37,142 nucleotides of DNA from the sequence record SRR22947727_1523; one strand, 5' to 3'. Every line of letters begins with the position of its first letter. Positions within the stretch are counted from its first letter, which is position 1. Both the position numbers and the translations under genes were made by a program. The notes below the pieces were generated by a model. The model had not been told where the DNA came from, searched no databases, and worked only from the letters and a program-made list of their open reading frames with translations. Below, piece after piece: positions 10,249 through 35,766 of this stretch.

Positions 10249-10264
10249 GATAGATTTGAAAACT

Positions 10265-11071: not shown

Positions 11072-11116
11072 AGATTGATCTGCATCAAAAGGGCTGATTT
11101 TTCACATCGATCACTT

Positions 11117-11132
11117 TGGCATGAAATATGCA
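11117..11132 (+). promoter_or_regulatory. sigma54 -24/-12 promoter
   Basis: TGGCAT-GAAAT-ATGCA; GG 11118-19 and GC 11130-31; about 30 nt upstream of ATG 11164, the same geometry as the flgG promoter. Confidence 0.75.
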
Positions 11133-11163
11133 AACTACTAATTAGAAATTAAAAGGTTGTGTC

Positions 11164-11928: not shown

Positions 11929-11991
11929 CGTAAAAATAAGACAGAGGGTAAACCTCTGAAGATAGACTAGTAAGGTGAGAGGGCAGAGTTA

Positions 11992-17152: not shown

Positions 17153-18151
17153 TCAAATCGGTTCAATTTGTTGGGCCAAAAGGGTTTCCAATTCCAGGGT
17201 ATTTGCCAATGTTTTGGTTGCATCAAAGACCGAGATCAGCGGTTCGGCTTTGTCGGCCATCACATCCAGAAAGTGCTGCAATTGTTGCTGCAGCGGCACC
17301 GCCGTTGCAATTTTCAATTTGCGCGGTGTCGGCGTCTCTGACCAATCTGCCGCTCCGCCCCATTGGGTCATTGAGGGAAATGAAATCCCACCCTCTGTTC
17401 CCGTAATCCACAGCATATCCTGGCGGCTTGTTGCAATATTGGGGTTCTCTCCCGTGCCGGCCTCAAACCCCCATGGGCTGGGGGCGGTGTCGGCAAAACT
17501 AATGCTTGCTGTCATTCCGGTTTCGAACAAAATAGCCGCGGCGCCGCTTTCCACGCGGGCTTGATTGCGGATTTGAGAGGACCCAAAGCCGGTTATTTTG
17601 GCAATGTCGCCAAAAATAAACCGCAGCAGGTCTAAATCATGAACGATATTGATCATCACTGGACTGCCTTCGGTGCTACGCCAATTTTGTTCAAAATAAG
17701 CATCTGGTTTGCGCATTGCCCAAATCATGCTGGCCGTCACGGCGGTGCCAATTTTTTTGTCTTTAACAAGGGATTTAAGCGCTTGAACGCTGGGATGATA
17801 GCGTCGGTGATGTCCCACCAGGCTTGCGATTCCGCTTTCTTGGACCACCTGCGACAATTGTTTGGCTTGCTCTAAACTGGCGGTGACGGGCTTTTCGATA
17901 AGAATATCCCAGCCTTTGCGCGCTGCATCGATACCATTCTCGCAGTGCAAATTTGTGGGCGTGGCGATGATTACCCCATCCACGGGGGCTGTGACCTGCG
18001 ATATATCTGAAAAATAGCTGGCATTGGCGTCTCGATATAGGCTTTGGTTGGGTTCGACCACACCGACAAGGTTACACCCCGCATGGGCCTTGATCGCTTG
18101 GGCGTGCCGCGCGCCGATCAGCCCAGCACCAAGCACCAAAAGCTGCTTCAC
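17153..18151 (-). CDS. Gfo/Idh/MocA-family oxidoreductase
   Basis: VLGAGLIG..H, VIIATPT.LH, ILIEKP, VGHHRRY, HDLDL; GTG start overlaps the upstream stop. Confidence 0.9.
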   Translation of the reverse strand: MKQLLVLGAGLIGARHAQAIKAHAGCNLVGVVEPNQSLYRDANASYFSDISQVTAPVDGVIIATPTNLHCENGIDAARKGWDILIEKPVTASLEQAKQLSQVVQESGIASLVGHHRRYHPSVQALKSLVKDKKIGTAVTASMIWAMRKPDAYFEQNWRSTEGSPVMINIVHDLDLLRFIFGDIAKITGFGSSQIRNQARVESGAAAILFETGMTASISFADTAPSPWGFEAGTGENPNIATSRQDMLWITGTEGGISFPSMTQWGGAADWSETPTPRKLKIATAVPLQQQLQHFLDVMADKAEPLISVFDATKTLANTLELETLLAQQIEPI

Positions 18152-19665: not shown

Positions 19666-20613
19666 TTACGCGCAAAACGGGGCATCCGACTGCCACCGAT
19701 GGATCGGGATATGCTCCCCGTTTGAAAGTTTCCTGCGGGCTGTTTCCCATAAACCGCGCCATTCTTTCCAATCCTGTAAAACGCGTTCGGGTTGGCTTTG
19801 ACTGTAAGCGATAAAATCTGGGAAATGTGATCGGCCCGTCGGTTGGCCGGTTACGTTATAGCGCAGATCGAAAGACCATCTAAAGCCATTCGTATGATTG
19901 GGCAAGGAGGCATGCGGTATAAGTGGATGTAGAATAACCAGGCTGCCCGCCTTCACTGGTAAGGCTTTGGCATCCGCCTCGTTGATCCAGCCATCGGCGA
20001 TGGCGGTTTGGGTTTTCGGGCAATGGGGAAGCATTTTTTTATGCTTGCCTGGAATAACCTTTAGGCAACCATTGTCTTGGGTGGCATCCGTGATCGCAAC
20101 CCAAACCGTTATCATATCCGTCTGATCAGCTTCCTCGAGTGCGACGCCGCGATCTTGGTGCCAATCTGTTTTGGTAATATGGGCCCTGATCTCACCCTCG
20201 GCCAAGCGCTTGCTGGGCGGTTTGATCCGCACATGCTGAATCGGATTTGACGTGATTTCAGGTCCGATCAGATCTTCAACGATTTTTAAAACCCGTTGAT
20301 GTGTGATCATAGCAAAGACAGCAGGCCCAAAATGCATGGGCGTATCGGGGAAAATTTGATCCCCTGGCAAGCTGATATCCAGAGGTTGAAACCAATCGCA
20401 GCCGGCTTCGTAAGACAGCGCCAGTTTTTGCCAGAAATCTAAGGTTTCGGGCGCAGTTTTAACGCGCCCGTCTTTGAACCATTTGTGATAGAGCCCCTCT
20501 AAGAGCTGCGCATATTCGCTTTGAATATGCGCCAACTCTTGAGAGGTTAGAACATTTGGAACAACCAGATACCCATTTTCTTTAAATGCGTTTTGTTGAT
20601 CTGGGCTCAACAT
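19666..20613 (-). CDS. PhyH-family Fe(II)/2-oxoglutarate dioxygenase (2)
   Basis: FKENGYLVV, DWHQD, ITVWVAITDATQDNGCLKVIPG, PHASLPN..FRWSFDLRY. Confidence 0.9.
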   Translation of the reverse strand: MLSPDQQNAFKENGYLVVPNVLTSQELAHIQSEYAQLLEGLYHKWFKDGRVKTAPETLDFWQKLALSYEAGCDWFQPLDISLPGDQIFPDTPMHFGPAVFAMITHQRVLKIVEDLIGPEITSNPIQHVRIKPPSKRLAEGEIRAHITKTDWHQDRGVALEEADQTDMITVWVAITDATQDNGCLKVIPGKHKKMLPHCPKTQTAIADGWINEADAKALPVKAGSLVILHPLIPHASLPNHTNGFRWSFDLRYNVTGQPTGRSHFPDFIAYSQSQPERVLQDWKEWRGLWETARRKLSNGEHIPIHRWQSDAPFCA

Positions 20614-20628: not shown

Positions 20629-22293
20629 CTATAACAAAACTGAAACAATCGGTGGCCAGATCAGCAAGACTGACAAGGCTATCAGCTGGATGCCGATAAA
20701 GGGTAAAAACCCTTTGAAAATATCGGTCAGCGAAATATGCGCAGGCGCCACTGATTTGAGGTAAAATGCGGCTGGCCCAAAGGGTGGTGATAAGAAGCTA
20801 ACCTGCATATTCATACAGAATAATACACCAAACCAAGTTGCCACATGGCGCGGATTCAATTCACCAAAAATGCCAATTTCTTGAATAGGCAGGCGCAAAA
20901 CGATCGGCAAAAAGACCGGGATGATCAGCAAAACAATCCCAACCCAATCCATAAAAGCGCCCATGATCAAGAGAATGAACATCATAGAAAGAAGAACCAG
21001 CATCGTGGGCATTTCGGAGCCAACGATCAGATCTGCCACAAAACGCGGTCCACCCGCGATCGTGTAGGCCCCTGCAAGCGCTGCGGCGCCGATGGTCACC
21101 CAAATGATGGTTCCGGTTGATTTCATCGTGCGCATTAGGCTGTCCCATACCAGCTCAAAATTGGCTTCGCCGCGTAATATGGCGATGATCAAAACCGCAA
21201 TCGCGCCCATGCCTGCCGCTTCTGTTATTCCTGTAATGCCACCGTAAATTGATCCAAGAACCACGCCGATCACGACCATAGGCGCAACCAACCCTTTGCC
21301 CATTTCCCAGGCCAATGCAGAGCGCTCGCGTCCAAAGCCAAAAAACGCGATCAGCACAGAGGCAATGATATAGCCGGCAAACCATGGAAGGTAATCCGCA
21401 GTTCCTAAGAAGATGGGCTCTATGGCGTCATCCAAGGGTGCGTTTTGACCCGTTACCGTGAAGAACAAGGCCCGCAAGAATAATGCGGTTACAGCGCCAA
21501 AAAAGACAACATTCAAAAACGCGATGAACAGTTTCAATTTGTCATACCCCTGCGGCTCGCCTTCAGCAGGCTTGGGCAACGGGGCATCTTCTGGGCGGAT
21601 TTGGGTTCGAATAACGATGTAGATGATGATGAAGCTTGCCAACATGAAACCGGGTAAAAACGCTGCGGTAAACAGCGCTTTGATCGAGGTCTCTGTGATC
21701 AACCCATACATAATCAAAACGATCGAGGGGGGGATCATCGTGCCCAAAGATCCCGAGGCGCAGATTGTTCCGATTGCGAGGTTTTGATTATAGCCAAGCC
21801 GGAGCATTTGCGGCAATGCAATCAATCCCAGCAGTACCACCTCCCCACCAATAATGCCCGACATTGCGGCCATAATCACGGCCATGATCGAGGTCACGAT
21901 TGCAATGCCGCCACGGGTTCCGTTCAGCCAAACATTCAAAGAGCTATACATATCTTTGGCAATGCCCGAACGTTCCAATAGCGAGGCCATGAAGATGAAC
22001 AGGGGTACCGAAATCAAAACATAGCTGGTCATAACGCCGTAAATTTTTTGCTGCAGGATATTCAGGGCTCCCGCCCCCGGCCTCCCGGTAAGCGTACATC
22101 GTACGCCGGGATTTGCCTCAGTATACCAGTCAGGGCACCCGAAGCTGAGCGGATTCGACAAAAGGGCAGGTTCAAACTTCATAACCAAAACCAAAACGGC
22201 TAAAATAGCCGAGGCCAAGCCCAGAGGCATGCCAATGGCCAGTAAAATAAACAGGCCTATTAACAAGACCAGAGAAATAGTTCCGATATCCAT
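20629..22293 (-). CDS. dctM: TRAP transporter large permease DctM
   Basis: SVPLFIFMA..LERSG, MAAMSG, ASGSLGTMIPPSIVLIMYG, TEAA, SFLSPPFG. Confidence 0.93.
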   Translation of the reverse strand: MDIGTISLVLLIGLFILLAIGMPLGLASAILAVLVLVMKFEPALLSNPLSFGCPDWYTEANPGVRCTLTGRPGAGALNILQQKIYGVMTSYVLISVPLFIFMASLLERSGIAKDMYSSLNVWLNGTRGGIAIVTSIMAVIMAAMSGIIGGEVVLLGLIALPQMLRLGYNQNLAIGTICASGSLGTMIPPSIVLIMYGLITETSIKALFTAAFLPGFMLASFIIIYIVIRTQIRPEDAPLPKPAEGEPQGYDKLKLFIAFLNVVFFGAVTALFLRALFFTVTGQNAPLDDAIEPIFLGTADYLPWFAGYIIASVLIAFFGFGRERSALAWEMGKGLVAPMVVIGVVLGSIYGGITGITEAAGMGAIAVLIIAILRGEANFELVWDSLMRTMKSTGTIIWVTIGAAALAGAYTIAGGPRFVADLIVGSEMPTMLVLLSMMFILLIMGAFMDWVGIVLLIIPVFLPIVLRLPIQEIGIFGELNPRHVATWFGVLFCMNMQVSFLSPPFGPAAFYLKSVAPAHISLTDIFKGFLPFIGIQLIALSVLLIWPPIVSVLL

Positions 22294-23135
22294 CAGGTTG
22301 ATCCCACGTTGCGTTTCAGTGTTTCAATTTCATCTTCTATATCGTCTGTTGCTGAATGCTTTATTGGTTCAAGCTTCCAGTCAGAAAACAGGTTAAACAC
22401 AGATTGCAATGCCACTAAAGACACCATGACCAAAATAAATGGCTTTAAGGTTGCGGGTATCGGAGGGTCAAAGGCGGTGCCAAATGTTTCCCAGCTATAA
22501 AACTTTTTGAAAGATTCCCCGTACCCACCGTAACATAAAAAGAAAGCAAAAATAACGATGAGACTGGTTGATATCGTGTCGCAGACACGCTGTAGAGCGC
22601 GCGGTAAAACGTCGTAAAGCAAGAAAATTCTGATATGGCTGCGCTGCTGCATCGCGTAAAGCCCTGCGCATAAAAACACAAAGCTGGCCACCCATAATGA
22701 CAGCTCATTGGCCCATAATGTAGGCGCTTCCACCACGTAGCGCATGAACACTTCGTAGATCATCACACTGGTCAGCACGACGATTTGCACCATCGTGATG
22801 CGACCAATGAAAACAGCGATCCGATCCACAGGGCGCCAATGTTCGAATTCCATGCGCGCCCGTTCAACCGTGAAGAAGCCAAAAACCAGCAAAATAGGAA
22901 GCGCAATCAGCGTGAGCCAATCTACAATATCGGCGAACCCGCCAAATAAACCCGGCAGGTTCGGCGTCACATCATTGCGGATCATTTGAGCAGAGAGCTG
23001 GTCAAACAGCGATTTATCTTCTGGTGTGAAAAAATCCAGGATGAAATAGGGGAAGTGCCAGCATTGCCAGGCAAAACAAATGATAAAGGCGGCTGGTATA
23101 TACCATTCCTTGTGGTTAACCGTGGTTACCTGCAT
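22293..23135 (-). CDS. dctQ: TRAP transporter small permease DctQ with N-terminal extension
   Basis: YEVFMRY...PTLWANELS, HIRIFLLYD, WETFGTAFDPP; immediately upstream of dctM. Confidence 0.88.
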   Translation of the reverse strand: MQVTTVNHKEWYIPAAFIICFAWQCWHFPYFILDFFTPEDKSLFDQLSAQMIRNDVTPNLPGLFGGFADIVDWLTLIALPILLVFGFFTVERARMEFEHWRPVDRIAVFIGRITMVQIVVLTSVMIYEVFMRYVVEAPTLWANELSLWVASFVFLCAGLYAMQQRSHIRIFLLYDVLPRALQRVCDTISTSLIVIFAFFLCYGGYGESFKKFYSWETFGTAFDPPIPATLKPFILVMVSLVALQSVFNLFSDWKLEPIKHSATDDIEDEIETLKRNVGST

Positions 23136-23175: not shown

Positions 23176-24339
23176 TTATAGTGCAAAGTATTGCAAAAAG
23201 TCTCTGTCTGGTGTGATCCCAAGGCCTGGGCCCTCTGGTAGCGCAATATAGCCATTGGTTCGGGCAACTTGCGCTTGAATTTCTAACGGCGTTTCCAACA
23301 ATTCATCGCGGAATTTATTATCTGTTGTGTCAAATTCCAACATTGGCTCCCAAGGGTTCATCCCGCCGGGCAAATCAGGCATGGACGCGAGTAAGTGCAT
23401 ATTGGTTGCAACCGCAACCGCCGAACCCCAGACATGATTGACCACCGGCGTGAAATGCGCGTGGCACAGCGCTAATACCCGCAAATATTCAGATATGCCC
23501 CCCAGGGCACAAACTTCCGGCTGGGCTATATCCAGCCCGCGCGATTCAAGCAGGCTGCGCCAGCCCCATCTGTTGAATTCGGCTTCACCGCCTGAAATGT
23601 TCACGTTTAGGCCCGCGCGCAATTCGCGATAACCTTGCAGGTCCTCCGGCGCGATCGGTTCTTCAAACCAATAGGCGTCAAGATCTTCCAAGGCGCGCCC
23701 TACTTCAAAAGCATCGCTTGTTGTATAGCAGTGATTTGCATCCACCATGAACCTAAAATCATCGCCAATGCCGCGCCGCACTGCTTCCGCCAGTTTTATA
23801 TCTGCACGGGGCCCCAACCCCACTTTCATTTTTGTTGCAACGAAGCCCATATCTTTGATCGCGCGCGCTTCTTCTTTAAAGCGGACCGTCAAATCTTCAA
23901 GTGGCTCTGGGCGCAGCATCATGCCGTATCCATAGACGGGAATGTGTTGGCGATGCGCGCCGCCGATCAGTTGATAAAGCGGTAAGTTCGCGACTTTTCC
24001 GGCAATATCCCACAGCGCGATATCAACCCCAGATAAGGCCTGCATCGGCATGCCCTTTTGTCCGTGGTCGCGCATCAGATTATATGTTTTGTGCCACAAG
24101 ACATCCCGATCAAGCGGAGAGTGGCCTAAGATGATGGGTTGAATCACATCTTGCACGATGGTGCGGTTCGCAAGCGCAATATTGCCCGGGCCAAAGCATT
24201 CCCCCCAACCCGTAAGACCTTCGTCGGTTTCGACTTCGATCAGATGCGCGGTGCGTTTGTTATAAAACTGTTGAGAATAGCCCAGCGTCTGCGGCATGTC
24301 ATATTGCAGAATATGGCTGGTGATTTTGGTTATTTCCAT
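23176..24339 (-). CDS. Mandelate racemase/MLE enolase-superfamily enzyme, galactarolactone cycloisomerase (Gci)-like
   Basis: GWGECFGP, RDHGQKG..ALSGVDIALWDI.GK, KMK, DANH, WFEEP, GGE, HVWG, NPWEPMLEFD; resembles Agrobacterium Gci from memory. ATG 24339 preferred over TTG 24351. Confidence 0.75.
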   Translation of the reverse strand: MEITKITSHILQYDMPQTLGYSQQFYNKRTAHLIEVETDEGLTGWGECFGPGNIALANRTIVQDVIQPIILGHSPLDRDVLWHKTYNLMRDHGQKGMPMQALSGVDIALWDIAGKVANLPLYQLIGGAHRQHIPVYGYGMMLRPEPLEDLTVRFKEEARAIKDMGFVATKMKVGLGPRADIKLAEAVRRGIGDDFRFMVDANHCYTTSDAFEVGRALEDLDAYWFEEPIAPEDLQGYRELRAGLNVNISGGEAEFNRWGWRSLLESRGLDIAQPEVCALGGISEYLRVLALCHAHFTPVVNHVWGSAVAVATNMHLLASMPDLPGGMNPWEPMLEFDTTDNKFRDELLETPLEIQAQVARTNGYIALPEGPGLGITPDRDFLQYFAL

Positions 24340-24390
24340 TGGGAAGCCCAACTCACCTTTTTTCTTATTTTTTAGGTTTCGGCCTGTTCG

Positions 24391-24443: not shown

Positions 24444-25454
24444 TTAGTCTACCAGACCCAGCTCTTTCAGATATGTCACGTGGCTCGCAAGCAGAGCTTT
24501 CGCTTCTGGAGTAGTTGCGAAATCGCTCCATGCGGCTTGTGCCGCGGCGCGGAAGCTGGCCCGGTCTGCAGGAGACCAGTCATGCAAGGTTACACCTTCA
24601 CCGCGCAGTTTGGAGGCTGCTGCAGTCATGCCTTTACCCACCTGCATTGAGGTTTGGAAAGCCAGTGACTCCATCGCAACATTCATGATGCGGCGGTGCG
24701 CTTCGGGCATGCCATCCCAAACGGCTTTGTTACAGGCCAAGTGGTCAGATGGCATTGAGTGGAAGCCAGGATAGTTTGTGTGCTTCACGATGTCATACAG
24801 GCCCAAGCTAACGTTTGTGGCGATGTTTGATGCATCCGCTCCATCAATGATACCAGTTTCCAAAGCGGTGAAGATTTCGGTGAAATCCATCACGATGGGT
24901 GAGGCGCCAAGATTGTCAAAAATCATAGTGGCCATGCCTGGAGGTGACCGGAATTTCCAGTTTTTGAAATCTTCTGCGTTACGGATTGGTTTTGAAGAGG
25001 ACAGGCTTTCCATGCCTGGGATCCACCAGCCGATGAACTGCATGTCATATTTGTTGTAAAGCTCTTGTGCTGCCTCGTAACCACCACCGTTATAGAGCCA
25101 GCTATACTGATCCCATGGTGAGTCGTATCCGCCCATGATGTCGCCAACGAATTGGAATGCAGGGTTCTTACCTGTTTGGTAAGCACCACCTGTCATGTCG
25201 CAATCTAAAACACCTGTGGCTGCGGCGTCGAATGTTTCCACAGAAGACACCACTGAAGATGAATAGTACATCTCGATCGAGATCTCACCGCCAGACATTG
25301 TTTGCACATTGTCGATAAATTGCGCCGCAAGCTTACCGTTAGGGCTTTCTTCAGAGAAATGCGTTTGAATGCGCAGGTTGGTTGCTGCGGATGCAGTTGT
25401 TGCAGCCATGGCTGCGATACCGGCAGCATAGGCTACCTTTTTTATTAGTTTCAT
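24444..25454 (-). CDS. dctP: TRAP transporter substrate-binding protein DctP
   Basis: Signal peptide; MSGGEISIE, WKFRSP (carboxylate-binding Arg), EIFTALETGIIDG; RBS GGGAGG. Confidence 0.92.
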   Translation of the reverse strand: MKLIKKVAYAAGIAAMAATTASAATNLRIQTHFSEESPNGKLAAQFIDNVQTMSGGEISIEMYYSSSVVSSVETFDAAATGVLDCDMTGGAYQTGKNPAFQFVGDIMGGYDSPWDQYSWLYNGGGYEAAQELYNKYDMQFIGWWIPGMESLSSSKPIRNAEDFKNWKFRSPPGMATMIFDNLGASPIVMDFTEIFTALETGIIDGADASNIATNVSLGLYDIVKHTNYPGFHSMPSDHLACNKAVWDGMPEAHRRIMNVAMESLAFQTSMQVGKGMTAAASKLRGEGVTLHDWSPADRASFRAAAQAAWSDFATTPEAKALLASHVTYLKELGLVD

Positions 25455-25641: not shown

Positions 25642-26310
25642 ATGGATGATGAAAGCGATATTTACGAAGGCCTACGTCTGCGGGTAACCTCAGGTGGGTT
25701 GACGCCGAATACGAAATTAAAACCCAGCGTTTTGCGCCATGATTATAATTGTTCGGCCAGCACCATTCGAGAGGCTTTATTCAGATTATCCACCGTTGGC
25801 TTGGTGTCTTTTCAAGAGCAGCGTGGCTTTCGCGTTCCAATTCCAACCGATCAAGCGCAACATGAGCTAACGCATCTGCGTATTTTGCTTGAATGCGAGG
25901 GGGCTTGTTTGTCGATTCGTCAGGGCGGTATTGATTGGGAATCTCGGCTGACGGCGGCGCATCATAAATTATCGCATATCGAAAAAAGAGTGCGTGGAAG
26001 CGCTGACCATATGCCGCTTTTCATTCTTTGGGCAAAAGCCGAGCAAGCGTTTCATGAGACTCTCATTTCAGATTGCGGATCAGATGTGCTCAAAGCCACG
26101 CACGCGATGATCTATCAGCGATTTCGTCAGCAAGTTTTTAATTCAGATAAGAAATTTGTCTTCGTGGTCGAAAATATTGAGCAGCATCAGGGAATTTTAG
26201 ATGCCGCTCTGATGCGAGATGAGGCGTTGATCCGGTCTCGTATTTATAGTCACTTAGAAAGAAACTTGGTGTTTGACATGCCGCCCGAGCTGCCCAAGCT
26301 TCCATATTAA
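25642..26310 (+). CDS. GntR-family regulator (FadR subfamily, FCD domain)
   Basis: wHTH S.STIREAL.RL...GLV...QRGFRV; LR.LLE; FH..L; EQHQGILDA; divergent from the TRAP operon. Confidence 0.92.
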   Translation: MDDESDIYEGLRLRVTSGGLTPNTKLKPSVLRHDYNCSASTIREALFRLSTVGLVSFQEQRGFRVPIPTDQAQHELTHLRILLECEGACLSIRQGGIDWESRLTAAHHKLSHIEKRVRGSADHMPLFILWAKAEQAFHETLISDCGSDVLKATHAMIYQRFRQQVFNSDKKFVFVVENIEQHQGILDAALMRDEALIRSRIYSHLERNLVFDMPPELPKLPY

Positions 26311-26322: not shown

Positions 26323-27318
26323 TTAATCAGTGCTGGCTTTGCTGGCGTTGGGCAAATCATCCTGGATATAGGTCGCGATGATCTCATCAAAACTCGCTTC
26401 TGCTTGAAAGCCCAGCGCACGCGCACGTTTTGCGGTAAAATTTCGAGGCCAGGAGGAAACGATATTAGTGATCGTGTCATCAGGTTGCCGCTCAATCAAT
26501 TTAATGACCGATTGACCTGCAGCGCGGCGCAGCGCCTCTATTTGCTCTTCCACTGTGCAACTTACGCCTGGCAGGTTGAGCGCGCGCCGATTTTCCAAAA
26601 GCCCGCTGTCTAACGTTGCGGCATGCCGTAAAAACCCGGCTGCTGCGCGCGGAGAAGCGTGCCAATGACGCACGCTTTCATCCACGGGTAAAATTGCTTT
26701 TTGGCCATTTAAAGGCTCGCGTATGATCCCTGAAAAAAACGATGAGGCGGCCAGATTGGCTTTGCCTGGGCGCACGCATATCGTTGGTAAGCGCAAGGAT
26801 ATCCCGTCTACAAACCCTTTTCTGCTAAAATCTGACAGCAGCAATTCACAGGAAGCTTTTTGAGCTCCATAGCTGGTTTGAGGGGCGCTTAAAAACGTAT
26901 CGTCAATCTGTTCCGGAAACGGGCCGCCAAACACTGCAATCGAGGAGGTGAAAATAATTTTTGGAACAAAGGCTTGGTTGGACTCGATGTGAAGCGCCTT
27001 CAGCGCTTCTAGATAATGCCACATTGTGAACATATTGACCTGCCAGCCAGCCTCGAAATTGCTTTCAGCTTCGCCCGAAACGATCGACGCCAGATGAAAG
27101 ACGATATTGGGGCGCAATCGGGCAAGCATGGTAATATTTTGCGCATCGGTTAAAGAGCCGGTTATACAGCGCAGACGCCCGTCTTGCTTGAGGGGGAAGG
27201 CCATATCAAACAACGTAATGTCCAGCGCCTTATGGCCGGGCAAGCCACTGGCCAAAAGGTGATTTGCCAGCTTTTGCCCTACCATACCGCCGCCACCAAG
27301 GATCAAGATTTTTGTCAT
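26323..27318 (-). CDS. Extended SDR, D-erythronate dehydrogenase (DenD)-like
   Basis: GGGGMVGQKL, FHLASIVSGEAE.NF..G..VN, FTSSIAVFG, SYGAQK, RLPTICVRPGKANLAASSFFSGIIREPL. Confidence 0.8.
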   Translation of the reverse strand: MTKILILGGGGMVGQKLANHLLASGLPGHKALDITLFDMAFPLKQDGRLRCITGSLTDAQNITMLARLRPNIVFHLASIVSGEAESNFEAGWQVNMFTMWHYLEALKALHIESNQAFVPKIIFTSSIAVFGGPFPEQIDDTFLSAPQTSYGAQKASCELLLSDFSRKGFVDGISLRLPTICVRPGKANLAASSFFSGIIREPLNGQKAILPVDESVRHWHASPRAAAGFLRHAATLDSGLLENRRALNLPGVSCTVEEQIEALRRAAGQSVIKLIERQPDDTITNIVSSWPRNFTAKRARALGFQAEASFDEIIATYIQDDLPNASKASTD

Positions 27319-28202
27319 GGCTTGTTTTGTCCATGCTCGAGCAATTCCAAATACAGGCCAGAATGGTCCGTATCTGCACCACCCATATGCTCAACCAAAT
27401 GTTCAAAGCGATCTCGGATATGCTGCGTGACGGGTAAGGTCACGCCAAGCTGCGCGGCTTCATTCAGCCCGTTATTCAGATCTTTGAGGTGAAATTTAGC
27501 AGGCCCGCCCGGCACAAAATTGCCCGTTGTCATACGCTCTCCATGTTGTTGAAGAATAACGCTATCGGCAAAGCCACCCTGCAAGGCTGCGCGCACCGCT
27601 GCCGGATCGGCCCCGCCGCGCTCGAGCAGCAGCATGGCTTCGGCAACCGCGCCGATTGTAACGGCAACAATGGCCTGGTTCGCCAGTTTTGCCAATTGTC
27701 CAGCGCCCGAGGGCCCCACATGGGTTGGCCGGCCCATACCGGCCAGAACATCTTGAACTTGAGAAAAATCTTCTGCAGCCCCCCCAACCATAATCGCAAG
27801 ACTGCCGGCCTCGGCCCCTTTGGTGCCGCCTGAAACTGGCGCGTCTAAATGTCGGATGTTAACAGCGCGCAAATGCGCCGCTTGGGCGCGCGCTTCTTCT
27901 GGTTTCGTGCTGGACATATCCACCCAGACTGCGTCGGGTTTGAGCGCTTTTTGCAAAGTCGCATCGTCCAAGATCAAAGCCACGGTCGGGCCGTCTGACA
28001 CCATTGAAATGATTATATCTGCATTTTTAACTGCCTCTGCGGCGCTTGTCGCTACATGCACACCAAAGCCAGATAGCCCAATCGCTTTTTCAGCAGATCT
28101 GTTCCAAGCGCTCAGGCTGATACCATTGGCAGATAAGTTCCTAGCCATTGGGAACCCCATAAGACCTGTTCCTAGAAATGCGACCTTTGATATTTCCGAC
28201 AT
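27315..28202 (-). CDS. NAD(P)-dependent beta-hydroxyacid dehydrogenase family protein (tartronate semialdehyde reductase-like)
   Basis: FLGTGLMGFPMA, LDAPVSGG, AKLANQ, GGFADS.IL..HG.RM, LKDL. Confidence 0.88.
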   Translation of the reverse strand: MSEISKVAFLGTGLMGFPMARNLSANGISLSAWNRSAEKAIGLSGFGVHVATSAAEAVKNADIIISMVSDGPTVALILDDATLQKALKPDAVWVDMSSTKPEEARAQAAHLRAVNIRHLDAPVSGGTKGAEAGSLAIMVGGAAEDFSQVQDVLAGMGRPTHVGPSGAGQLAKLANQAIVAVTIGAVAEAMLLLERGGADPAAVRAALQGGFADSVILQQHGERMTTGNFVPGGPAKFHLKDLNNGLNEAAQLGVTLPVTQHIRDRFEHLVEHMGGADTDHSGLYLELLEHGQNKP

Positions 28203-28393
28203 TGCATCCTCATTTTGTTCTTTCTACCGTCACAATAGAGATGAAATTTCGGATGTCACTCAGGATTTGTAGGTTGTTGTGGCCGCGTTCCGTAACTGTT
28301 GAGTGTTCGTGCATCTGATGTTAGTCACAGCGAAGCGAAGGTTGCGTTGCCCAAAAAATATTGGGTTTTAGCACGGGCAATGGGGGAAAGTTT

Positions 28394-29140
28394 ATGGCTG
28401 GTAACAGGTTGAAAAATAAACGCGTTTTGGTGACGGCGGCGGGTCAAGGGATCGGCCGAGCGGCGGCTTTGGCGATGGCGGCTGAGGGCGCTGAGGTGTT
28501 CGCCACGGACATAAACCACGAAGGTTTGGCGCAGTTGAAATCTGAGGCGACCGGCCGATTAAAGGCGTTTGAATTAGATGTCCGCTCAGAGGCCTCTGTG
28601 GCGGCGGGCGTTGAAGTGGCGCAGCCCGATGTGTTGTTCAATTGTGCTGGTTTTGTGCATAATGGCACGGTGTTAGAGGCCAGCGATGAAGATTGGGAAT
28701 TCGCTTTTGATCTGAATGTGCGCTCGATGTTGCGGACCGTGCGGGCGGCTTTACCGGGTATGTTAGAGCGCGGATCGGGCTCTATTATCAATATGTCTTC
28801 AGCCTGTTCTTCGGTTATCGGAGCGCCAAACCGGTTTGTCTATGGCACCACGAAAGCGGCGGTTCTGGGCCTCACAAAATCGGTTGCAATCGATTACATT
28901 ACCAAAGGGATCCGCTGCAACGCGATCTGCCCGGGTACGGTGGAAAGCCCGAGCTTGCATGATCGCTTGCATGCCACTGGCGATTACGAGGCGGCAATGA
29001 AAGCCTTTATTGCGCGCCAACCGATGGGACGGATTGCAAAAGCAGAAGAAATTGCGGCGCTGGTGGTGTATCTTGCCAGCGATGAAAGTGCCTTTACCAC
29101 AGGGCAAGCCCATATCATTGATGGCGGATGGTCAGGATAA
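28394..29140 (+). CDS. SDR, 2-keto-3-deoxy-L-fuconate dehydrogenase/BDH2-like
   Basis: [57 protein letters not shown] 28394. Confidence 0.8.
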
Positions 29141-29144
29141 ACTT

Positions 29145-30938
29145 ATGAAAAAAATTCAAATTGAAGACTTAAGATCACGTAAATGGTTCATGAATGCGGA
29201 TAACCGCGAAATGACAGCGCTTTATTTAGAGCGGTATTTGAATTATGGCCTGACGCGAAAAGAACTGCAATCGGGCAAACCTATCATTGGGATCGCCCAA
29301 ACGGGCAGCGATCTCAGCCCGTGCAACCGCCACCACCTCGAGCTTACCAAGCGCGTGCGCGACGGAATCATCGCGGCCGGCGGCACACCGATTGAAATTC
29401 CTGTTCACCCGATTCAAGAAACCGGCAAGCGTCCAACCGCGATGTTAGACCGCAATTTGGCCTATCTATCGCTTGTGGAAACCTTATTTGGCTATCCGCT
29501 TGATGGCGTGGTGCTGAATATTGGCTGCGATAAAACCACCCCTGCGCTGCTCATGGCGGCCGCGACGGTGAATATCCCGGCCATCGCGCTTTCGGTTGGG
29601 CCGATGTTAAATGGCTGGTTCAACGGCGAGCGGACCGGTTCGGGCACCATCGTTTGGAAGGCACGCGAGATGTTGGCCTCGGGCGACATTGATGATGATG
29701 GTTTTATGGAGCTGGTTTCCAGCGCCGCACCTTCGGTTGGCTACTGCAATACGATGGGCACCGCCACTACGATGAATTCTTTGGCCGAAGCGTTGGGCAT
29801 GCAATTGCCCGGCTCTGCAGCGATTCCGGCGCCTTACCGCGAACGCGGACAAATCAGTTATGAAACCGGTTTACGGATCGTCGATATGGTGTGGGAAGAC
29901 CTACGGCCAAGCGATGTGATGACGCGTGAGGCCTTTGAAAATGCGATCGTAATCAATTCTGCGATTGGCGGCTCTACCAATGCGCCGATCCATTTGAACG
30001 CGATTGCGCGCCATCTTGGCGTGCCATTGAACAATGATGATTGGCAGAGCATTGGCCATGAGATTCCGCTTTTGGTGAATTTGCAGCCCGCGGGGGAGTA
30101 TCTGGGTGAAGATTATCAAAGGGCGGGCGGCGTCCCAGCGGTTGTTGGAGAGTTGCTCGAAGCTGATTTGTTGCCGCATCCCAAAGCGCTCACCGTCAAT
30201 GGCGCGTCCATGGGCGATAATTGCTCCGACCGGCGCAGCGAAAACCAAGATGTGATCAAACCCGTGAGCGCGCCCATCAAAGCGCAAGCCGGGTTTATTA
30301 ATTTAACGGGGAACTTGTTTGACAGCGCGATCATGAAAACTTCGGTGATCAGTGACAATTTTCGGCAAAGCTATCTGTCAAACCCCGAGGACCCAGATGC
30401 GTTTGAAGGCCGGGCTATTGTGTTTGATGGGCCCGAGGAGTTTCACCATCGCATTGATGATCCTGCGGAAAATATTGATGAGACCTGTATTCTTTTCATG
30501 CGTGGTACGGGGCCGATTGGATATCCGGGGGGCGCCGAAGTGGTCAATATGCGCCCGCCTGCTTATTTGTTGAAAAAAGGCGTTGAGGCGCTGCCCTGTA
30601 TTGGCGATGGCCGTCAATCGGGCACATCAGGAAGTCCTTCAATTTTAAATGCCTCGCCAGAAGCGGCGGCCGGCGGCGGGCTGGCGCTATTGAAAACCGG
30701 CGATCGCGTCCGCATTGATCTTAAAAAATGTTCGGCGGATATGCTGGTACCTTTGGACGAGTTGGCAGAGCGCGCCCGCGCCTTTGAGGCCGAAGGCTAT
30801 CCCTACCCAGAGAATCATTCGCCCTGGCAAGAGCTGTTCCGCGAAAAGGTAGGCAGCTTTGACGAAGGTATGATTTTGAAAGATGCCGATAATTACAGAG
30901 ATATTGCGCGCAAATATGTGCCGCGCGACAACCATTAG
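29145..30938 (+). CDS. IlvD/Edd-family sugar-acid dehydratase (xylonate dehydratase XylD-like subgroup)
   Basis: [46 protein letters not shown]; the start is ATG 29145, since the track's 29010 start overlaps the SDR gene. Confidence 0.9.
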
Positions 30939-30948
30939 GAGAAAGAGA

Positions 30949-31797
30949 ATGAAGCTTGTTCGTTATGGGGCCATCGGTGCGGAAAAACCCGGTTTGATCG
31001 ATCAAAATGGGGATCTTAGAGATCTGTCATCGCATGTTGATGACATTGCCGGGGCCGCGCTGCAAGATGCAGAGATGGAAAAATTACGCGCGCTCGACCC
31101 GAACAACCTGCCATTGGTTGATGGCAGCCCGCGCTTGGGCGCATGCGTTGGAAGCATTGGAAAATTTCTGTGTATCGGTTTGAATTATTCTGATCACGCG
31201 GCTGAAACTGGCGCCGCAATTCCCGAACATCCAATTTTATTTGCCAAAGCCACCTCTGCTGTTGTGGGCCCGAACGATGATGTGTCGATGCCGCGCGGAT
31301 CAACCCATACAGATTGGGAAGTCGAGCTGGGCGTGGTGATTGGTAAAACGGCCAAATATGTCTCGCAAGAAGAGGCGCTTGATTATGTGGCTGGCTATTG
31401 CGTTATCAATGATGTGTCTGAGCGCCATTTTCAAACCTCGCTTACGGGGCAATGGACGAAGGGGAAATCCTGCGACACATTCGGGCCAACCGGCCCGTGG
31501 TTGGTCACTCGTGACGAAATTGCAGATCCACAAAATCTAGCGATGAGCTTGGATGTGAACGGCACGCGTATGCAAACCGGCAACACCAACACAATGATTT
31601 TTTCCGTAGCGGAGATAATTGAACATCTTTCTGGGTTGATGTCTTTGCACCCAGGTGATGTGATAAGCACCGGAACGCCCCCTGGCGTTGGGATGGGGAT
31701 CAAGCCGCAGCCGATCTATCTCAAGCGCGGTGATGTGATGGAGCTGGCGATTGAAGGCCTTGGATCGCAGCGTCAGAGTGTTAAGGAAGACGCATGA
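30949..31797 (+). CDS. Fumarylacetoacetate hydrolase-family protein (2,4-diketo-acid hydrolase-like)
   Basis: MKLVRYG..G.EKPG, CIGLNYSDHA.E, DWEVELGVVIG, NDVSER, GKSCDTFGP, GDVISTGTP; RBS AGGAG before ATG 30949. Confidence 0.9.
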   Translation: MKLVRYGAIGAEKPGLIDQNGDLRDLSSHVDDIAGAALQDAEMEKLRALDPNNLPLVDGSPRLGACVGSIGKFLCIGLNYSDHAAETGAAIPEHPILFAKATSAVVGPNDDVSMPRGSTHTDWEVELGVVIGKTAKYVSQEEALDYVAGYCVINDVSERHFQTSLTGQWTKGKSCDTFGPTGPWLVTRDEIADPQNLAMSLDVNGTRMQTGNTNTMIFSVAEIIEHLSGLMSLHPGDVISTGTPPGVGMGIKPQPIYLKRGDVMELAIEGLGSQRQSVKEDA

Positions 31798-32750
31798 GCA
31801 TGCCGGATCTTTTGCTGATCGGCGGCGTAACGGAAGAAATGCTGCATCGCCTTTCTAAGAAATTTACCATCCACGCATTGGCGGATATCGCAGATCCAAT
31901 CGCCTGGTTGGCAGAGCATGGTGATAAAATTTCTTACGTCGCCACGAATGGTCATGATGGGATTTTGCCCGCCTATATGAAGGCGATGCCCAATTTGAAA
32001 GTGATCAGCTGCTACGGGGTGGGCTATGATGCGATCGACACCGCCGCCGCTGCCGCACGCGGCATTCATGTCACGCATACGCCGAATGTGTTGAACGCTG
32101 AAGTGGCGAGCACAGCGCTTTTGCTGATGCTTGCATGCTATCGAAACTTCTTGGCAGAAGACGCGCATGTGCGGTCGGGTGCGTGGGAGCGCGAGGGCAA
32201 TGCGCCCTTGTCGCGCTCTGCAGATAATCAAATTGTTGGTATTTTGGGCATGGGTCGGATTGGGCAGGCCATTGCCCAGAAACTCGCTCCGTTTAACGCT
32301 AAAATTCTTTATCATTCGCGTAGCGCAAAGCCGGTTGAATACATCTATTGTGATAGTCTTATCGAGATGGCGCGCCAAAGCGATGTGGTGATTTGTATCA
32401 CTCCAGGCGGGCCCGCGACGCGGCATCTTGTCAACGCAGACGTGTTGAATGCTCTAGGTCCTAACGGCACTTTGATCAATGTGAGCCGTGGGTCGGTTGT
32501 GGATGAAGAGGCTCTGATTGCAGCCTTGCAAGACGGGCGCCTTGGCTGGGCCGGGCTAGATGTATTTGAGCAAGAGCCGAAAGTGCCCGAAACTTTGCGG
32601 GCGCTGTCAAATGTGGCTTTGTTGCCGCATGTGGGGAGCGCCACTGTGGAAACCCGCGCGGCGATGGGAAATCTCACGGTTGATAATATACTCAATCACC
32701 TCGCCTCGGGCAGCGTGATCAGCCCAGTGCCGGAATGCGCGCATCTGTAA
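31794..32750 (+). CDS. D-2-hydroxyacid dehydrogenase (hydroxypyruvate/2-ketoacid reductase-like)
   Basis: GVGYDAID, THTPNVL, GMGRIG, INVSRGSVVDE, LDVFEQEP, PHVGSAT. Confidence 0.92.
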   Translation: MSMPDLLLIGGVTEEMLHRLSKKFTIHALADIADPIAWLAEHGDKISYVATNGHDGILPAYMKAMPNLKVISCYGVGYDAIDTAAAAARGIHVTHTPNVLNAEVASTALLLMLACYRNFLAEDAHVRSGAWEREGNAPLSRSADNQIVGILGMGRIGQAIAQKLAPFNAKILYHSRSAKPVEYIYCDSLIEMARQSDVVICITPGGPATRHLVNADVLNALGPNGTLINVSRGSVVDEEALIAALQDGRLGWAGLDVFEQEPKVPETLRALSNVALLPHVGSATVETRAAMGNLTVDNILNHLASGSVISPVPECAHL

Positions 32751-32762
32751 GGTGATCGCAGC

Positions 32763-33869
32763 GTGAGGGAGAATACCCAGATCGTTGATTTAGAGGCGGC
32801 GCTTTTTGAGGTGCCGCTCGATGAGGTGTTAGTGGATGCCAAACATGGGGCGCATAGCCATTTTCAGTTAATCTGCGTCACCATCTGTTTGGCAGATGGG
32901 CGCCGCGCCACCGGTTATACCTATACGGGCGGGCGCGGAGGCCATGCGATTCTTGCGCTGATTCGAAACGATTTAGCGCCATTTTTAGTTGGGCGCTGCA
33001 GCACGGATATCGAAAGCTTGTATGAGCAAATGCTGTGGCATATGCATTATGTCGGGCGCGGGGGCATCGTAAGCTTTGCAATTTCTGCTGTTGATATCGC
33101 GCTTTGGGATTTGCGCTGCAAAGCAGCGGGTTTGCCGCTATGGCGGATGGCAGGCGGCGCAGGCAACCGTTGCAAAGCCTATGCAGGCGGGATTGATCTG
33201 GCCTTTCCACTGCCAAAATTATGCGGTCATATTAAGGCTTATTTGGCGGCTGGTTTTAACGCGGTAAAAATCAAAGTGGGACAACCCAATCTTGAGGAAG
33301 ATGTTGCGCGGATCCGCGCGGTGCGCGCGTTAATCGGGCCCGACATTCACTTCATGATTGACGCCAATTATGCGCTGAATGTGGCGCAGGCGATTGCGCT
33401 TGCCAAGGCGGTGCGCGATCAAAATATTTTGTGGTTTGAAGAGCCGATTATACCTGAGAATTTTGCAGGCTATGCGGAAATTTTCAAGGCGACCGGCATC
33501 GCGGTTGCGCAGGGTGAAAACTTGCATACGCATGAAGAGTTTCAAATGGCGTTGGCGCAAAGCCGGTTGGGCTTTGTTCAGCCTGATGCGTCAAATTGTG
33601 GGGGCATCACGGGCTGGCTGCGCGTGGCGGCTGAGAGCGCGCGCTTTGGCGTGCCGATTTGCAGTCATGGGATGCAAGAATTACACGTGTCTTTGGTGAG
33701 CGGCCAAGCCCATGGCGGATGGCTTGAAGTGCATAGTTTTCCGATTGACCGATACACCAATCAGCCCCTGCAACTTGAACAGCATATGGCAATGGCGCCG
33801 GATGCGCCGGGTATTGGGGTCGAGTTTGATTGGGAGCGGCTGCAGCCGTTTCGGCTGCAGCTGTCATAA
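32763..33869 (+). CDS. Enolase-superfamily enzyme, 3,6-anhydro-L-galactonate cycloisomerase (ACI)-like
   Basis: [70 protein letters not shown] and [10 protein letters not shown] match, from memory, the Vibrio EJY3-type ACI; GTG start. Confidence 0.75.
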
Positions 33870-33872: not shown

Positions 33873-34640
33873 TTACAGCGAGGCGGTGATTCCACCGTCG
33901 ACGTAAAGCGTGTGGCCATTCACAAAACTAGACGCGTCAGAGGCCAAAAAGATGCAAGCCCCCACCAATTCTTCCACCTGCCCCCAACGCCCTGCGGGGG
34001 TTCGATTGGTCAGCCAAGCGCTGAATTCGGGATCGGCCACCAAAGCGGCATTTAAAGGCGTGTCAAAATAGCCCGGCGCAATCGCATTGCATTGTAGCCC
34101 GTGTTTGGCCCAATCGGTCGCCATGCCTTTCGTCAAATTGGTCACGGCGCCTTTGGTGGCCGTATAAGGTGCAATGCCGGGACGGGCCAAGGCCGATTGC
34201 ACGCTGGCAATGTTGATGATCTTTCCCCGTTCGCGCCCGATCATATGGCGGGCGACGGCTTGGCCCACGTGAAAGACCGACGCGATATTAGTTTGCAGCA
34301 ATTGTTCAAATGCCTCGGGTGGAAAATCTTGCAACGCGGTGCGATGCTGCATTCCGGCATTGTTAACCAGGATATCAATCGCGCCAGACGCGCTTTCAAA
34401 CCCGTCAACCGCCTCGCGTACGGCGGTATGATCCGTGGCATCAAACGCCAGTTGATGGGTTTTTGTACCGTCGGCCTCCAACGCTTTCGCTGCGCTGGCC
34501 AGTTTTTCGGCGTTGCGCCCGTTTAAGACGATTTGAACGCCCGCTGCCGCCAGACCTTTTGCCAGAGCAAAGCCGATGCCTTGGCTTGATCCCGTGATTA
34601 AGGCGCGCTTCCCATTAAGATTGAACAATCCAGGTGACAT
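33873..34640 (-). CDS. idnO: Gluconate 5-dehydrogenase (SDR, IdnO/Gno-like)
   Basis: LF.L.GKRALITGSSQGIG, NNAGMQHR, SVQSALARPGIAPYTATK, RTPAGRWG, FVNGH.LYVDGG. Confidence 0.82.
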   Translation of the reverse strand: MSPGLFNLNGKRALITGSSQGIGFALAKGLAAAGVQIVLNGRNAEKLASAAKALEADGTKTHQLAFDATDHTAVREAVDGFESASGAIDILVNNAGMQHRTALQDFPPEAFEQLLQTNIASVFHVGQAVARHMIGRERGKIINIASVQSALARPGIAPYTATKGAVTNLTKGMATDWAKHGLQCNAIAPGYFDTPLNAALVADPEFSAWLTNRTPAGRWGQVEELVGACIFLASDASSFVNGHTLYVDGGITASL

Positions 34641-34737: not shown

Positions 34738-35766
34738 ATGAAAGCTTTGGTCATTCACGGCGCGAAAGACTTGCGTTTGGAAACGCGCGACGCAGAGGCG
34801 CCGGGGCCCGGGCAGGTGGCGGTCGCTTTGAAAGCGGGGGGCATTTGTGGGTCCGACCTGCATTATTACAATCACGGTGGGTTTGGGCCGATCAAACTTC
34901 GTGAGCCAATGGTTCTGGGGCATGAAGTTGCAGGTGAAATCGTTGAGCTTGGCCCCGATGTCGAGGGGCTGCGGGTTGGGCAATTAGTGGCTATTTCGCC
35001 ATCAAGGCCTTGTTATAATTGCCTTTATTGTAGGGGCGGACAGTTAAATCATTGTTTAAACATGCGATTTTACGGTAGTGCGATGCCGTTTCCGCATATT
35101 CAGGGGGCTTTTCAGGAATATCTGGTGGCAGAGGCGGAGCAATGCGTTGTGGCGGATGGATTAACGGCGGGTGAAGCCGCGATGGCTGAGCCGCTGGCCG
35201 TGTCGTTGCATGCGATCAAGCAAGCTGGCAATTTGTTAGGGGCCCGCGTGTTGGTCACGGGCAGCGGTCCGATTGGTGCTCTGACCATTTTGGCTGTACG
35301 GCGCGCCGGCGCTGCAGAGATAATCGCCACTGACCTTTCGGATTACACGCTTGCGAAAGCAAAAGCTGTTGGGGCGGATCAAACGTATAATATCCTGACA
35401 CAGCCACAGGCTTTGGCCCCTTACAGCGTTGATAAAGGGCAGGTTGATGTGCATTTTGAATGCTCTGGGGCAGCCGCTGCGCTGGCGAGCGGCATCTCAG
35501 CTTTACGACCCGCTGGGCAATTGATACAGCTTGGCTTGGGCGGCGATATCAACGTGCCAATGCAAGCGCTGACCGCCAAAGAAATTTCTTTGAAGGGCTC
35601 TTTTAGGTTTCACTTTGAGTTTAAGGCAGCAGTGTCTTTGATGCAAAAAGGCTTGATTAACGTTTCCGATTTGATCACGCAAAACGTGCCGCTGCATGAG
35701 GCAGTTGCAGGATTTGAAATGGCATCGGATCGGGGATCCGCGCTGAAAGTGCAGATTGCGTTTTAA
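34738..35766 (+). CDS. idnD: L-idonate 5-dehydrogenase (Zn-dependent MDR)
   Basis: GGICGSDLHYY.HG, LGHE, PC..C.YC......C, MRFYGSAMPFPHIQGAF, EPLAV.LHA, GSFRF; divergent from idnO. Confidence 0.82.
   Translation: MKALVIHGAKDLRLETRDAEAPGPGQVAVALKAGGICGSDLHYYNHGGFGPIKLREPMVLGHEVAGEIVELGPDVEGLRVGQLVAISPSRPCYNCLYCRGGQLNHCLNMRFYGSAMPFPHIQGAFQEYLVAEAEQCVVADGLTAGEAAMAEPLAVSLHAIKQAGNLLGARVLVTGSGPIGALTILAVRRAGAAEIIATDLSDYTLAKAKAVGADQTYNILTQPQALAPYSVDKGQVDVHFECSGAAAALASGISALRPAGQLIQLGLGGDINVPMQALTAKEISLKGSFRFHFEFKAAVSLMQKGLINVSDLITQNVPLHEAVAGFEMASDRGSALKVQIAF

Follow-up and report, generated by a model that had tools for sequence, protein, structure and literature searches.

How a bacterium disposes of 2-keto-3-deoxy-L-galactonate (L-KDGal), the product of 3,6-anhydro-L-galactonate cycloisomerase (ACI), is the question raised by a cluster of five genes at positions 28394–33869 of the window, the 37,142-nucleotide stretch of sequence record SRR22947727_1523 analysed here. 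In the canonical agar route, a zinc-dependent alcohol dehydrogenase (Zn-ADH) and a KduD-type short-chain dehydrogenase/reductase (SDR) invert L-KDGal at C5 to 2-keto-3-deoxygluconate (KDG) (PMC5943477, PMC10163077). C5 inversion is the only bacterial L-KDGal route that we found described in the literature examined, and a 2024 review calls for more work on how bacteria catabolise L-KDGal (PMC11219438). Judged from the proteins encoded in the window, the best reading of the cluster is a route from 3,6-anhydro-L-galactonate through L-KDGal and a 2,4-diketo acid to pyruvate and L-glycerate, catalysed by ACI, the SDR encoded by the first gene (SDR1) and a FAH-family hydrolase, and we hold this reading with even confidence.

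A sequence-only reading of the window had named five tightly spaced genes and their families, and coordinates, open reading frames and Pfam domains all agree with it. The first gene encodes SDR1, an SDR of the L-2-keto-3-deoxyfuconate 4-dehydrogenase type (28394–29140, + strand; adh_short_C2, E 5e-59). It is followed on the same strand by genes for an IlvD/EDD-family sugar-acid dehydratase (29145–30938, with an ATG start at 29145; ILVD_EDD_N, E 4e-101), a FAH-family 2,4-diketo-3-deoxy-acid hydrolase (30949–31797; FAA_hydrolase, E 1e-73), a D-isomer-specific 2-hydroxyacid dehydrogenase (DH) of the glyoxylate/hydroxypyruvate reductase type (31794–32750; 2-Hacid_dh_C, E 1e-51) and, last, an ACI orthologue of the enolase superfamily (32763–33869; MR_MLE_N and MR_MLE_C, the latter at E 1e-54). 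With start codons and junctions read from the sequence, the intergenic distances are 4, 10, −4 and 12 bases, the 4-base overlap joining the FAH and DH genes. Because of this tight spacing, the natural reading of SDR1–IlvD–FAH–DH–ACI is a single predicted operon. A keto-deoxy-acid producer, a 4-dehydrogenase and a hydrolase, the set of the Route III non-phosphorylative pathway, are thus all encoded within one operon. Contigs about 98% identical to the window bridge the gene junctions in four runs filed as seawater metatranscriptomes from three studies, covering for example 28388–30350, 30384–32232 and 30321–33375. They hint weakly at a polycistronic transcript, DNA carry-over being possible, and their depth cannot rank the genes. 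Between 25400 and 36000 there was no excess of promoter-like sites (10, against a mean of 9.5 in shuffled sequence) or of terminator-like sites (8, against 15), and a search of three intergenic regions for inverted repeats that could form a shared operator found none.

The last gene had been called ACI-like, and this identification stands. Its product matches the Vibrio 3,6-anhydro-alpha-L-galactonate cycloisomerase (PDB 5xd7) over residues 5–364 with E 1.2e-151 and 508 bits, and the runner-up family, L-talarate/galactarate dehydratase (2pp0), scores far lower at 178 bits. Residues K169, K171, D200, E226, E252 and H302 are invariant across all ten aligned orthologues; on the pattern of the enolase superfamily we take these to include the catalytic KxK motif and the three acidic metal ligands. 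By alignment, the window protein keeps the histidine at the position where 5xd7 and its mutant structure 5xd9 differ. In a quick maximum-likelihood tree of 99 sequences, a check that the sequence-only reading had called for, the window protein lies inside the ACI clade, together with the enzymes of loci that carry genes of agar polysaccharide utilization loci (PULs) in Zobellia uliginosa, Pseudotamlana agarivorans and Cellulophaga. By similarity, motif and clade, the protein is an ACI orthologue with predicted activity EC 5.5.1.25. SCO3480, an enzyme with 42% identity to the Vibrio ACI, was characterised as an ACI nonetheless (PMC9706016).

SDR1 and the hydrolase belong to enzyme types for which a fitting chemistry has been described. 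The best structural matches of SDR1 are 8xwk, 8y11 and 8y4j (E 2e-82), with 2ag5 also matched; the first three are assigned in PMC11199699 to the 2-keto-3-deoxy-L-fuconate (L-KDF) 4-dehydrogenase (L-KDFDH) of Herbaspirillum huttiense. Table 1 of that paper gives the enzyme kcat/Km values (min−1 mM−1) of 7900 for L-KDF, 1480 for L-KDGal, 641 for 2-keto-3-deoxy-D-pentonate (D-KDP), 75 for KDG and 37 for the L-pentonate (L-KDP), so that L-KDGal is its second-best substrate (PMC11199699). Its specificity is for the 4(S)-hydroxyl; Arg148, Arg192 and Arg214 hold the substrate as its alpha-furanosyl hemiketal, and Trp252 touches the C6 methyl of L-KDF (PMC11199699). Alignment to 8xwk places the arginine ligands of the carboxylate and hemiketal and the C-terminal tryptophan at conserved positions in SDR1; among its orthologues, ACI-linked or not, the arginines are kept in 37 of 37 and the tryptophan in 36 of 37. 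The FAH protein scores 436.5 bits against NF053535 (2,4-didehydro-3-deoxy-L-rhamnonate hydrolase), under the cut-off of 500, and matches L-2,4-diketo-3-deoxyrhamnonate hydrolase (8gsr) at E 1.7e-100. A homologous dehydrogenase and hydrolase pair converts D-KDP to glycolate and L-KDF to lactate, as reported in PMC6336799.

The two remaining operon proteins have less specific assignments. The dehydratase scores 1014 bits against PRK13017 (cut-off 684), and its closest structures are 7m3k at 973 bits, an entry titled 'galactonate dehydratase', and 5oyn at 772 bits, which we take to be the Caulobacter D-xylonate dehydratase. It would feed a second substrate to SDR1 and the FAH hydrolase, a pentonate or hexonate of the D-xylonate or D-gluconate type. 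The fourth protein matches 4lsw and the NADPH-dependent glyoxylate/hydroxypyruvate reductases 5v72 and 5j23 (E 1e-74), and falls under every NCBIfam equivalog cut-off.

The catalytic steps that we infer for this organism, with the substrate transported and the handling of glycerate, would run as follows. 3,6-Anhydro-L-galactonate would enter as the acid, probably through a neighbouring tripartite ATP-independent periplasmic (TRAP) transporter, and ACI would open its ether ring to give L-KDGal. SDR1 would then oxidise C4 to give 2,4-diketo-3-deoxy-L-galactonate, which the FAH hydrolase would cut between C3 and C4. Because the C5 hydroxyl of L-KDGal is on the L side, this cleavage must give L-glycerate beside pyruvate, just as L-KDF gives L-lactate. 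L-Glycerate would be turned into D-glycerate by way of hydroxypyruvate or tartronate semialdehyde: one of two divergently transcribed dehydrogenases, resembling tartronate semialdehyde reductase (TSR) or D-erythronate dehydrogenase (DenD), would oxidise it, and reduction of hydroxypyruvate to D-glycerate would fall to the operon's own D-specific dehydrogenase. The sequence-only reading had the operon dehydrogenase handle the C3 product via hydroxypyruvate; reduction of hydroxypyruvate is indeed the more likely role, and the oxidation of L-glycerate does not suit a D-specific enzyme. A glycerate kinase encoded elsewhere would take D-glycerate onward, and a kinase of the MOFRL type is encoded in G001, a complete 3.6-Mb genome that served as proxy because its ACI is 98% identical to that of the window.

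The distribution of this arrangement was examined in two surveys. Among 201 genomes of the same family, one per genus, 41 have an ACI match at E≤1e-80, and 33 of these reach at least 58% identity; with 33 of the 201 sampled genera carrying ACI, the view that the enzyme is unexpected in a roseobacter-like organism falls away. The contexts of these 33 were sorted from twenty 20-kb neighbourhoods, three more neighbourhoods and a comparison of coordinates. ACI lies in an SDR1/FAH operon in nine (G001, G097, G005, G025, G180, G111, G190, G186 and G057) and beside the canonical Zn-ADH and SDR in ten (G022, G033, G080, G085, G086, G098, G108, G179, G194 and G199); the other 14 show neither context or sit on contigs too short to judge. 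The wider survey scanned species-representative genomes for the ACI pattern and took the best 80 of at least 590 coding matches with 10-kb flanks and record titles. Pooled, the surveys gave 103 ACI loci, 102 of them distinct, since L060 and L153 turned out to be one contig. We called a locus operon type if a FAH gene of at least 70% identity or an SDR1 gene of at least 65% identity lay within 6 kb of ACI, and canonical if a Zn-ADH of at least 45% or an SDR of at least 60% identity to the pair of locus L053 did so.

By these rules, the 99 intact rows of L037–L136 comprise 42 canonical, 23 operon-type and 21 neither, with 12 too short and one with both contexts. Adding L061, L154 and L155 to the 23 gives 26 operon-type loci among the 102 distinct ones, so that the conservation of gene neighbourhood, which the earlier reading had wanted checked, is borne out. 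Two loci scored as neither have canonical genes 6–7 kb from ACI (L125, L116), and two others with a 59%-identical FAH paralogue beside ACI (L047, L077) did not qualify for the operon type. Without exception, the operon is found in Rhodobacteraceae-type genomes (Roseobacter, Planktomarina, Planktotalea, Boseongicola, Tateyamaria, Aliishimia and relatives) or in marine metagenome-assembled genomes (MAGs) that are unclassified. In three of the operon-type loci (L066, L073 and L079) the dehydratase is absent and SDR1–FAH–DH–ACI are contiguous with spacing still tight, which leaves ACI as the sole enzyme of those operons able to make a keto-deoxy acid. In L061 (10001–11089), an operon-type locus whose source MAG bears the label Roseobacter sp., the ACI match contains a single in-frame stop, perhaps a pseudogene or an assembly error, and the sequence was left out of the tree.

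In Bacteroidota loci such as those of Zobellia uliginosa, Kriegella, Pricia and Cellulophaga, homologues of the canonical Zn-ADH, the canonical SDR or both accompany an aldehyde dehydrogenase gene upstream of ACI; in Pseudotamlana agarivorans these genes lie 4–8 kb from it. The Zobellia locus also has a GH43-like gene, a sulfatase gene and a GH2 gene, an arrangement that matches the Aquimarina ERC-38 table in PMC10163077, and on this match the L053 Zn-ADH and SDR are identified as the canonical pair. A third context was seen in L041, L087 and L112, where ACI stands with dctPQM genes (and a PfkB kinase gene in L041 and L087) and with neither the canonical pair nor SDR1/FAH nearby.

In the tree, 21 of the 23 operon-type rows share one clade of 26 with SH-aLRT support of 100. 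This clade is nested among the ACIs of canonical-context Rhodobacteraceae on a stem of ordinary length (0.13), with no long stem branch, and the arrangement is maintained down to ACI identities of about 62–64% across many genera.

The genomes with the operon lack the canonical partner. A search at E≤1e-90 for the Zn-ADH of the L-KDGal 5-dehydrogenase type gave no match in the nine operon-type family genomes, G001 included, and in the five checked more closely the best match has 30–35% identity. At the same threshold the enzyme occurs in 11 of the 201 family genomes; 10 of the 11 genes adjoin ACI, and none is in an operon-type genome. There is thus a lineage with ACI on the 3′ end of the module and no canonical partner. 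FAH homologues, for their part, are near-universal in the family (177 of 201 genomes).

C5 inversion could nevertheless be carried out by other enzymes. The account in terms of five genes is right as to those genes, and it overlooked a pair directly downstream: SDR2, a gluconate-5-dehydrogenase/KduD-like SDR convergent with ACI (33873–34640, − strand; PRK07523, 479 bits, cut-off 413), and a Zn-ADH resembling L-idonate 5-dehydrogenase (IdnD) (34738–35766, + strand; NF007375, 350.9 bits, under the cut-off of 469). SDR2 also scores 317 bits as a gluconate 5-dehydrogenase and 237 bits as KduD. In this explanation, which we consider unlikely, ACI is merely co-located with the module: the IdnD-like Zn-ADH and the IdnO/KduD-like SDR2 would invert L-KDGal to KDG, a KdgK-like PfkB kinase would phosphorylate it and 2-keto-3-deoxy-6-phosphogluconate (KDPG) aldolase would cleave it, a non-orthologous copy of the canonical route, and SDR1–IlvD–FAH–DH would serve another sugar acid such as D-xylonate. 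From its structure, L-KDGal has at C4–C6 the configuration of L-idonate, and the chemistry of IdnD and IdnO is that of the canonical inversion; a KdgK-like kinase is encoded in the window, G001 has two KDPG-aldolase-family genes, and the oxidative module also occurs alone, without ACI. The pair stands beside ACI in six surveyed loci (L037, L038, L058, L071, L073 and L106) and, rearranged, near it in L155. Against this, 19 of 24 listed operon-type loci lack the pair, and it lies outside the operon, with SDR2 convergent with ACI and the Zn-ADH divergent from SDR2. Its members are only 27–31% (Zn-ADH) and 38–40% (SDR2) identical to the canonical ACI-linked enzymes, and their best families are the L-idonate and gluconate 5-dehydrogenases. 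An IdnO-like SDR and an IdnD-like Zn-ADH recur near ACI or the SDR1 module in several genera (the window, L038, L058, L071, L073, L106, L144 and L155), and L106 carries them together with the canonical pair; recurrence and coexistence indicate that the pair is linked to this metabolism and is not a simple replacement of the canonical enzymes.

Several observations weigh against oxidative cleavage of L-KDGal as the purpose of the operon. The SDR1–IlvD–FAH–DH module stands without ACI in genomes that lack ACI (L137, L138, L139, L143 and L148) and, where a genome has a canonical cluster, at a second site away from it (L144, L146 and L156), and one locus (L130) has both, ACI and the canonical pair lying directly beside the module. 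In the nearest named relative (L057), ACI is about 2 Mb from the FAH orthologue. ACI and the module could lie together because they have a regulator or transporter in common, and not because they share flux. One family genome (G071) has ACI, TRAP genes and a PfkB kinase gene and lacks both a FAH match at E≤1e-90 and the canonical Zn-ADH, so a further fate of L-KDGal must exist beyond the oxidative and canonical routes. Adaptation of SDR1 to the 6-hydroxyl was sought in the orthologue alignment and none was seen, the tryptophan that contacts the C6 methyl being retained. Being D-specific by family, the predicted operon dehydrogenase cannot itself oxidise L-glycerate. An orthologue of the ACI-linked 3,6-anhydro-L-galactose (AHG) dehydrogenase, an aldehyde dehydrogenase, was not found in any of five operon-type genomes (best match 39–41% identity). 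Finally, under an approximately unbiased (AU) test one clade for all 23 operon-type rows is not rejected (p 0.94), so the 26 operon-type loci may trace to one event and not be independent.

The modules without ACI keep DenD-like, TSR-like, GntR, TRAP and UxaA neighbours. Since the module occurs without ACI, comparison of the loci indicates that SDR1–IlvD–FAH–DH is the older, self-sufficient funnel and that ACI is an add-on, attached at its 3′ end in one lineage as an extra feeder.

Could the linkage then be functionally meaningless, a single ACI insertion at the end of a pre-existing operon that was simply inherited? The quick tree places two operon-type enzymes (L052 and L054) outside the main operon clade, for a minimum of three context changes; the tree constrained to a single clade beats the free tree by 72 log-likelihood units, and the arrangement is confined to the Rhodobacteraceae-type genomes and unclassified marine MAGs named above. 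A single origin that is not rejected would suit such an insertion. Independent, repeated assembly of the operon was also considered, and was dropped on the outcome of the AU test. Simple inheritance of a meaningless linkage is nonetheless improbable, because the arrangement has been kept across many genera and down to about 62–64% ACI identity, has outlasted loss of the dehydratase with spacing still tight, and occurs in genomes from which the canonical partner gene is absent.

TRAP systems normally carry carboxylates. Among 100 ACI loci (L037–L136), DctP orthologues of at least 55% identity occur in 29 and an aldehyde dehydrogenase homologue in 24, and the TRAP binding protein and the AHG-dehydrogenase-like gene are never found together. 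Six canonical roseobacter loci pair the aldehyde dehydrogenase with a homologue of a sugar-binding protein of the ATP-binding cassette (ABC) type, and in L053 an ABC ATPase gene and two permease genes stand alongside it. In the simplest reading, a tentative one because modules that lack ACI have TRAP genes beside them as well, the neutral sugar would come in at ABC-type loci and the acid at TRAP-type loci. A GH117-like glycosidase query from Zobellia uliginosa (L127:4263–5270) had no match in five of five roseobacter genomes, a search that lacked a positive control and shows little.

The same evidence bears on the possibility that the ACI-like enzyme of the Rhodobacteraceae clade uses another substrate: it might dehydrate L-galactonate or act on a different anhydro or lactone acid imported by TRAP, in which case the operon would be unrelated to agar sugars. 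The AHG dehydrogenase orthologue and the GH117-like gene that were not found with the queries used, the mutual exclusion of aldehyde dehydrogenase and TRAP binding protein, and the presence in the same island of a UxaA-type dehydratase, two PhyH dioxygenases and a second cycloisomerase-type enolase would all fit it. We judge it quite unlikely: the 508-bit match to the Vibrio enzyme comes with conserved catalytic positions, the operon-type clade is nested among the ACIs of canonical clusters on an ordinary branch, and ACI activity is kept at 42% identity in SCO3480 (PMC9706016). Dehydration of L-galactonate would, on chemical grounds, still yield L-KDGal and leave the downstream logic unchanged. 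Returning to oxidative cleavage, we propose tentatively, and with a little less than even confidence, that pelagic roseobacters take up the acid by TRAP without an AHG dehydrogenase, open it with ACI, cleave L-KDGal oxidatively to pyruvate and L-glycerate, and reach D-glycerate through dehydrogenases of opposite stereospecificity.

The genes around the operon could supply other parts of this proposal. Divergent from it on the − strand are genes for a beta-hydroxyacid dehydrogenase resembling TSR and L-threonate dehydrogenase (27315–28202; TIGR01505, 239.6 bits, under the cut-off of 340.75) and for a DenD-like NAD-dependent dehydrogenase (26323–27318; NF043036, 366.7 bits, above the cut-off of 325). 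Of the 23 operon-type loci, 19 have one or the other as a neighbour, and such genes adjoin ACI-free modules too. A GntR/FCD-family regulator (25642–26310, + strand; Pfam GntR and FCD) follows; in most operon-type loci a homologue adjoins either the operon or the TRAP genes. The TRAP transporter genes, all on the − strand and identified by their Pfam domains, are dctP (24444–25454), dctQ (22293–23135) and dctM (20629–22293). The membrane parts are unusually long: DctM has 554 amino acids against 413 positions in the Pfam profile, and in DctQ, of 280 amino acids, the DctQ domain begins only at residue 122.

Between dctP and dctQ lies the gene for a second enolase-family protein of cycloisomerase type, Eno2 (23176–24351, − strand), which matches DauB (5olc, 292.6 bits) and galactarolactone cycloisomerase (4ggb, 289.3 bits) near-equally; if it is of the DauB type, the island would serve the D as well as the L form of anhydrogalactonate. 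Further along, also on the − strand, are genes for two PhyH-family dioxygenases (19666–20613 and 16217–17104), a UxaA/GarD-family dehydratase (18148–19656; GD_AH_C; TIGR03248, 373 bits, under the cut-off of 731) and a GFO-family oxidoreductase (17153–18151). By its family, the dehydratase is a possible further feeder of 2-keto-3-deoxy acids: the D-arabinonate dehydratase of H. huttiense belongs to the UxaA/GarD superfamily (PMC6336799) and was used to prepare L-KDF and L-KDGal (PMC11199699). The two PhyH genes and the GFO and UxaA/GarD genes accompany TRAP genes also in L045, L047, L077, L083, L116, L130 and L147.

The PfkB kinase resembling 2-dehydro-3-deoxygluconokinase (KdgK) is encoded at 13548–14501 (− strand; NF052444, 254 bits, under the cut-off of 400), and the region past the TRAP genes also encodes a further beta-hydroxyacid dehydrogenase and an EamA transporter. 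A Pfam scan of the window shows no Aldedh gene. Positions 1–13454 hold flagellar genes; among them, 3972–8552 (+ strand) encodes a FlgK-type hook-associated protein that is very long, at 1526 amino acids, with a flagellin-IN motif in mid-protein, and it is followed by a gene for a 562-amino-acid protein with a flagellin N-terminal domain.

All enzyme families involved are known, and the new element is their wiring. The full-text literature searched, which leaves out most subscription journals, yielded no description of ACI linked to FAH, L-glycerate or TRAP, and nothing that was judged related on anhydro-L-galactose in Rhodobacteraceae; for an L-KDGal 4-dehydrogenase it yielded PMC11199699 only. 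If the proposed route is true, an oxidative, phosphate-independent pathway would be a second solution for L-KDGal, yielding L-glycerate as an unusual intermediate, and would answer, in one lineage, the standing question of what becomes of L-KDGal in bacteria; the operons would also offer ready-made enzyme sets for converting an agar-derived sugar to pyruvate. Uptake of the acid without an AHG dehydrogenase would imply cross-feeding on oxidised anhydro sugar. Judging by which transporters go with ACI, abundant free-living roseobacters may live on scavenged anhydro-sugar acids and not break down agar on their own, which bears on how marine bacteria share red-algal carbon.

Four known systems bracket this proposal. 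With the canonical L-AHG pathway of Vibrio sp. EJY3, Pseudoalteromonas atlantica T6c and the agar PULs of Flavobacteriia it would share the cycloisomerase step (EC 5.5.1.25). By contrast with those systems, no orthologue of the AHG dehydrogenase or of the L-KDGal 5-dehydrogenase-type Zn-ADH was found in the operon-type genomes examined; ACI here ends an SDR/FAH operon, and a TRAP transporter, presumed to carry the acid, replaces the ABC or SusCD systems. Non-phosphorylative SDR/FAH pathways follow the same logic, in which a dehydratase, a 4-dehydrogenase of the SDR type and a FAH hydrolase lead to pyruvate and a short hydroxy acid, but here the keto-deoxy acid is predicted to come from opening the ether ring of an anhydro sugar acid and not from dehydration, L-glycerate takes the place of L-lactate or glycolate as the predicted second product, and a gene of the hydroxypyruvate-reductase type is fixed in the operon. 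The Dau pathway of Zobellia galactanivorans for 3,6-anhydro-D-galactose from carrageenan likewise uses an enolase-superfamily cycloisomerase on an anhydro-galactonate, and Eno2 of the window resembles its DauB; there, however, the DauB product is phosphorylated and cleaved by an aldolase, and Eno2 is equally similar to galactarolactone cycloisomerase. In the fungal D-galacturonate pathway, as reviewed in PMC11219438, L-KDGal is likewise broken down without phosphorylation to pyruvate and a C3 unit. The fungal L-KDGal aldolase achieves this by aldol cleavage to L-glyceraldehyde, whereas the route proposed here would oxidise L-KDGal and then hydrolyse it to L-glycerate.

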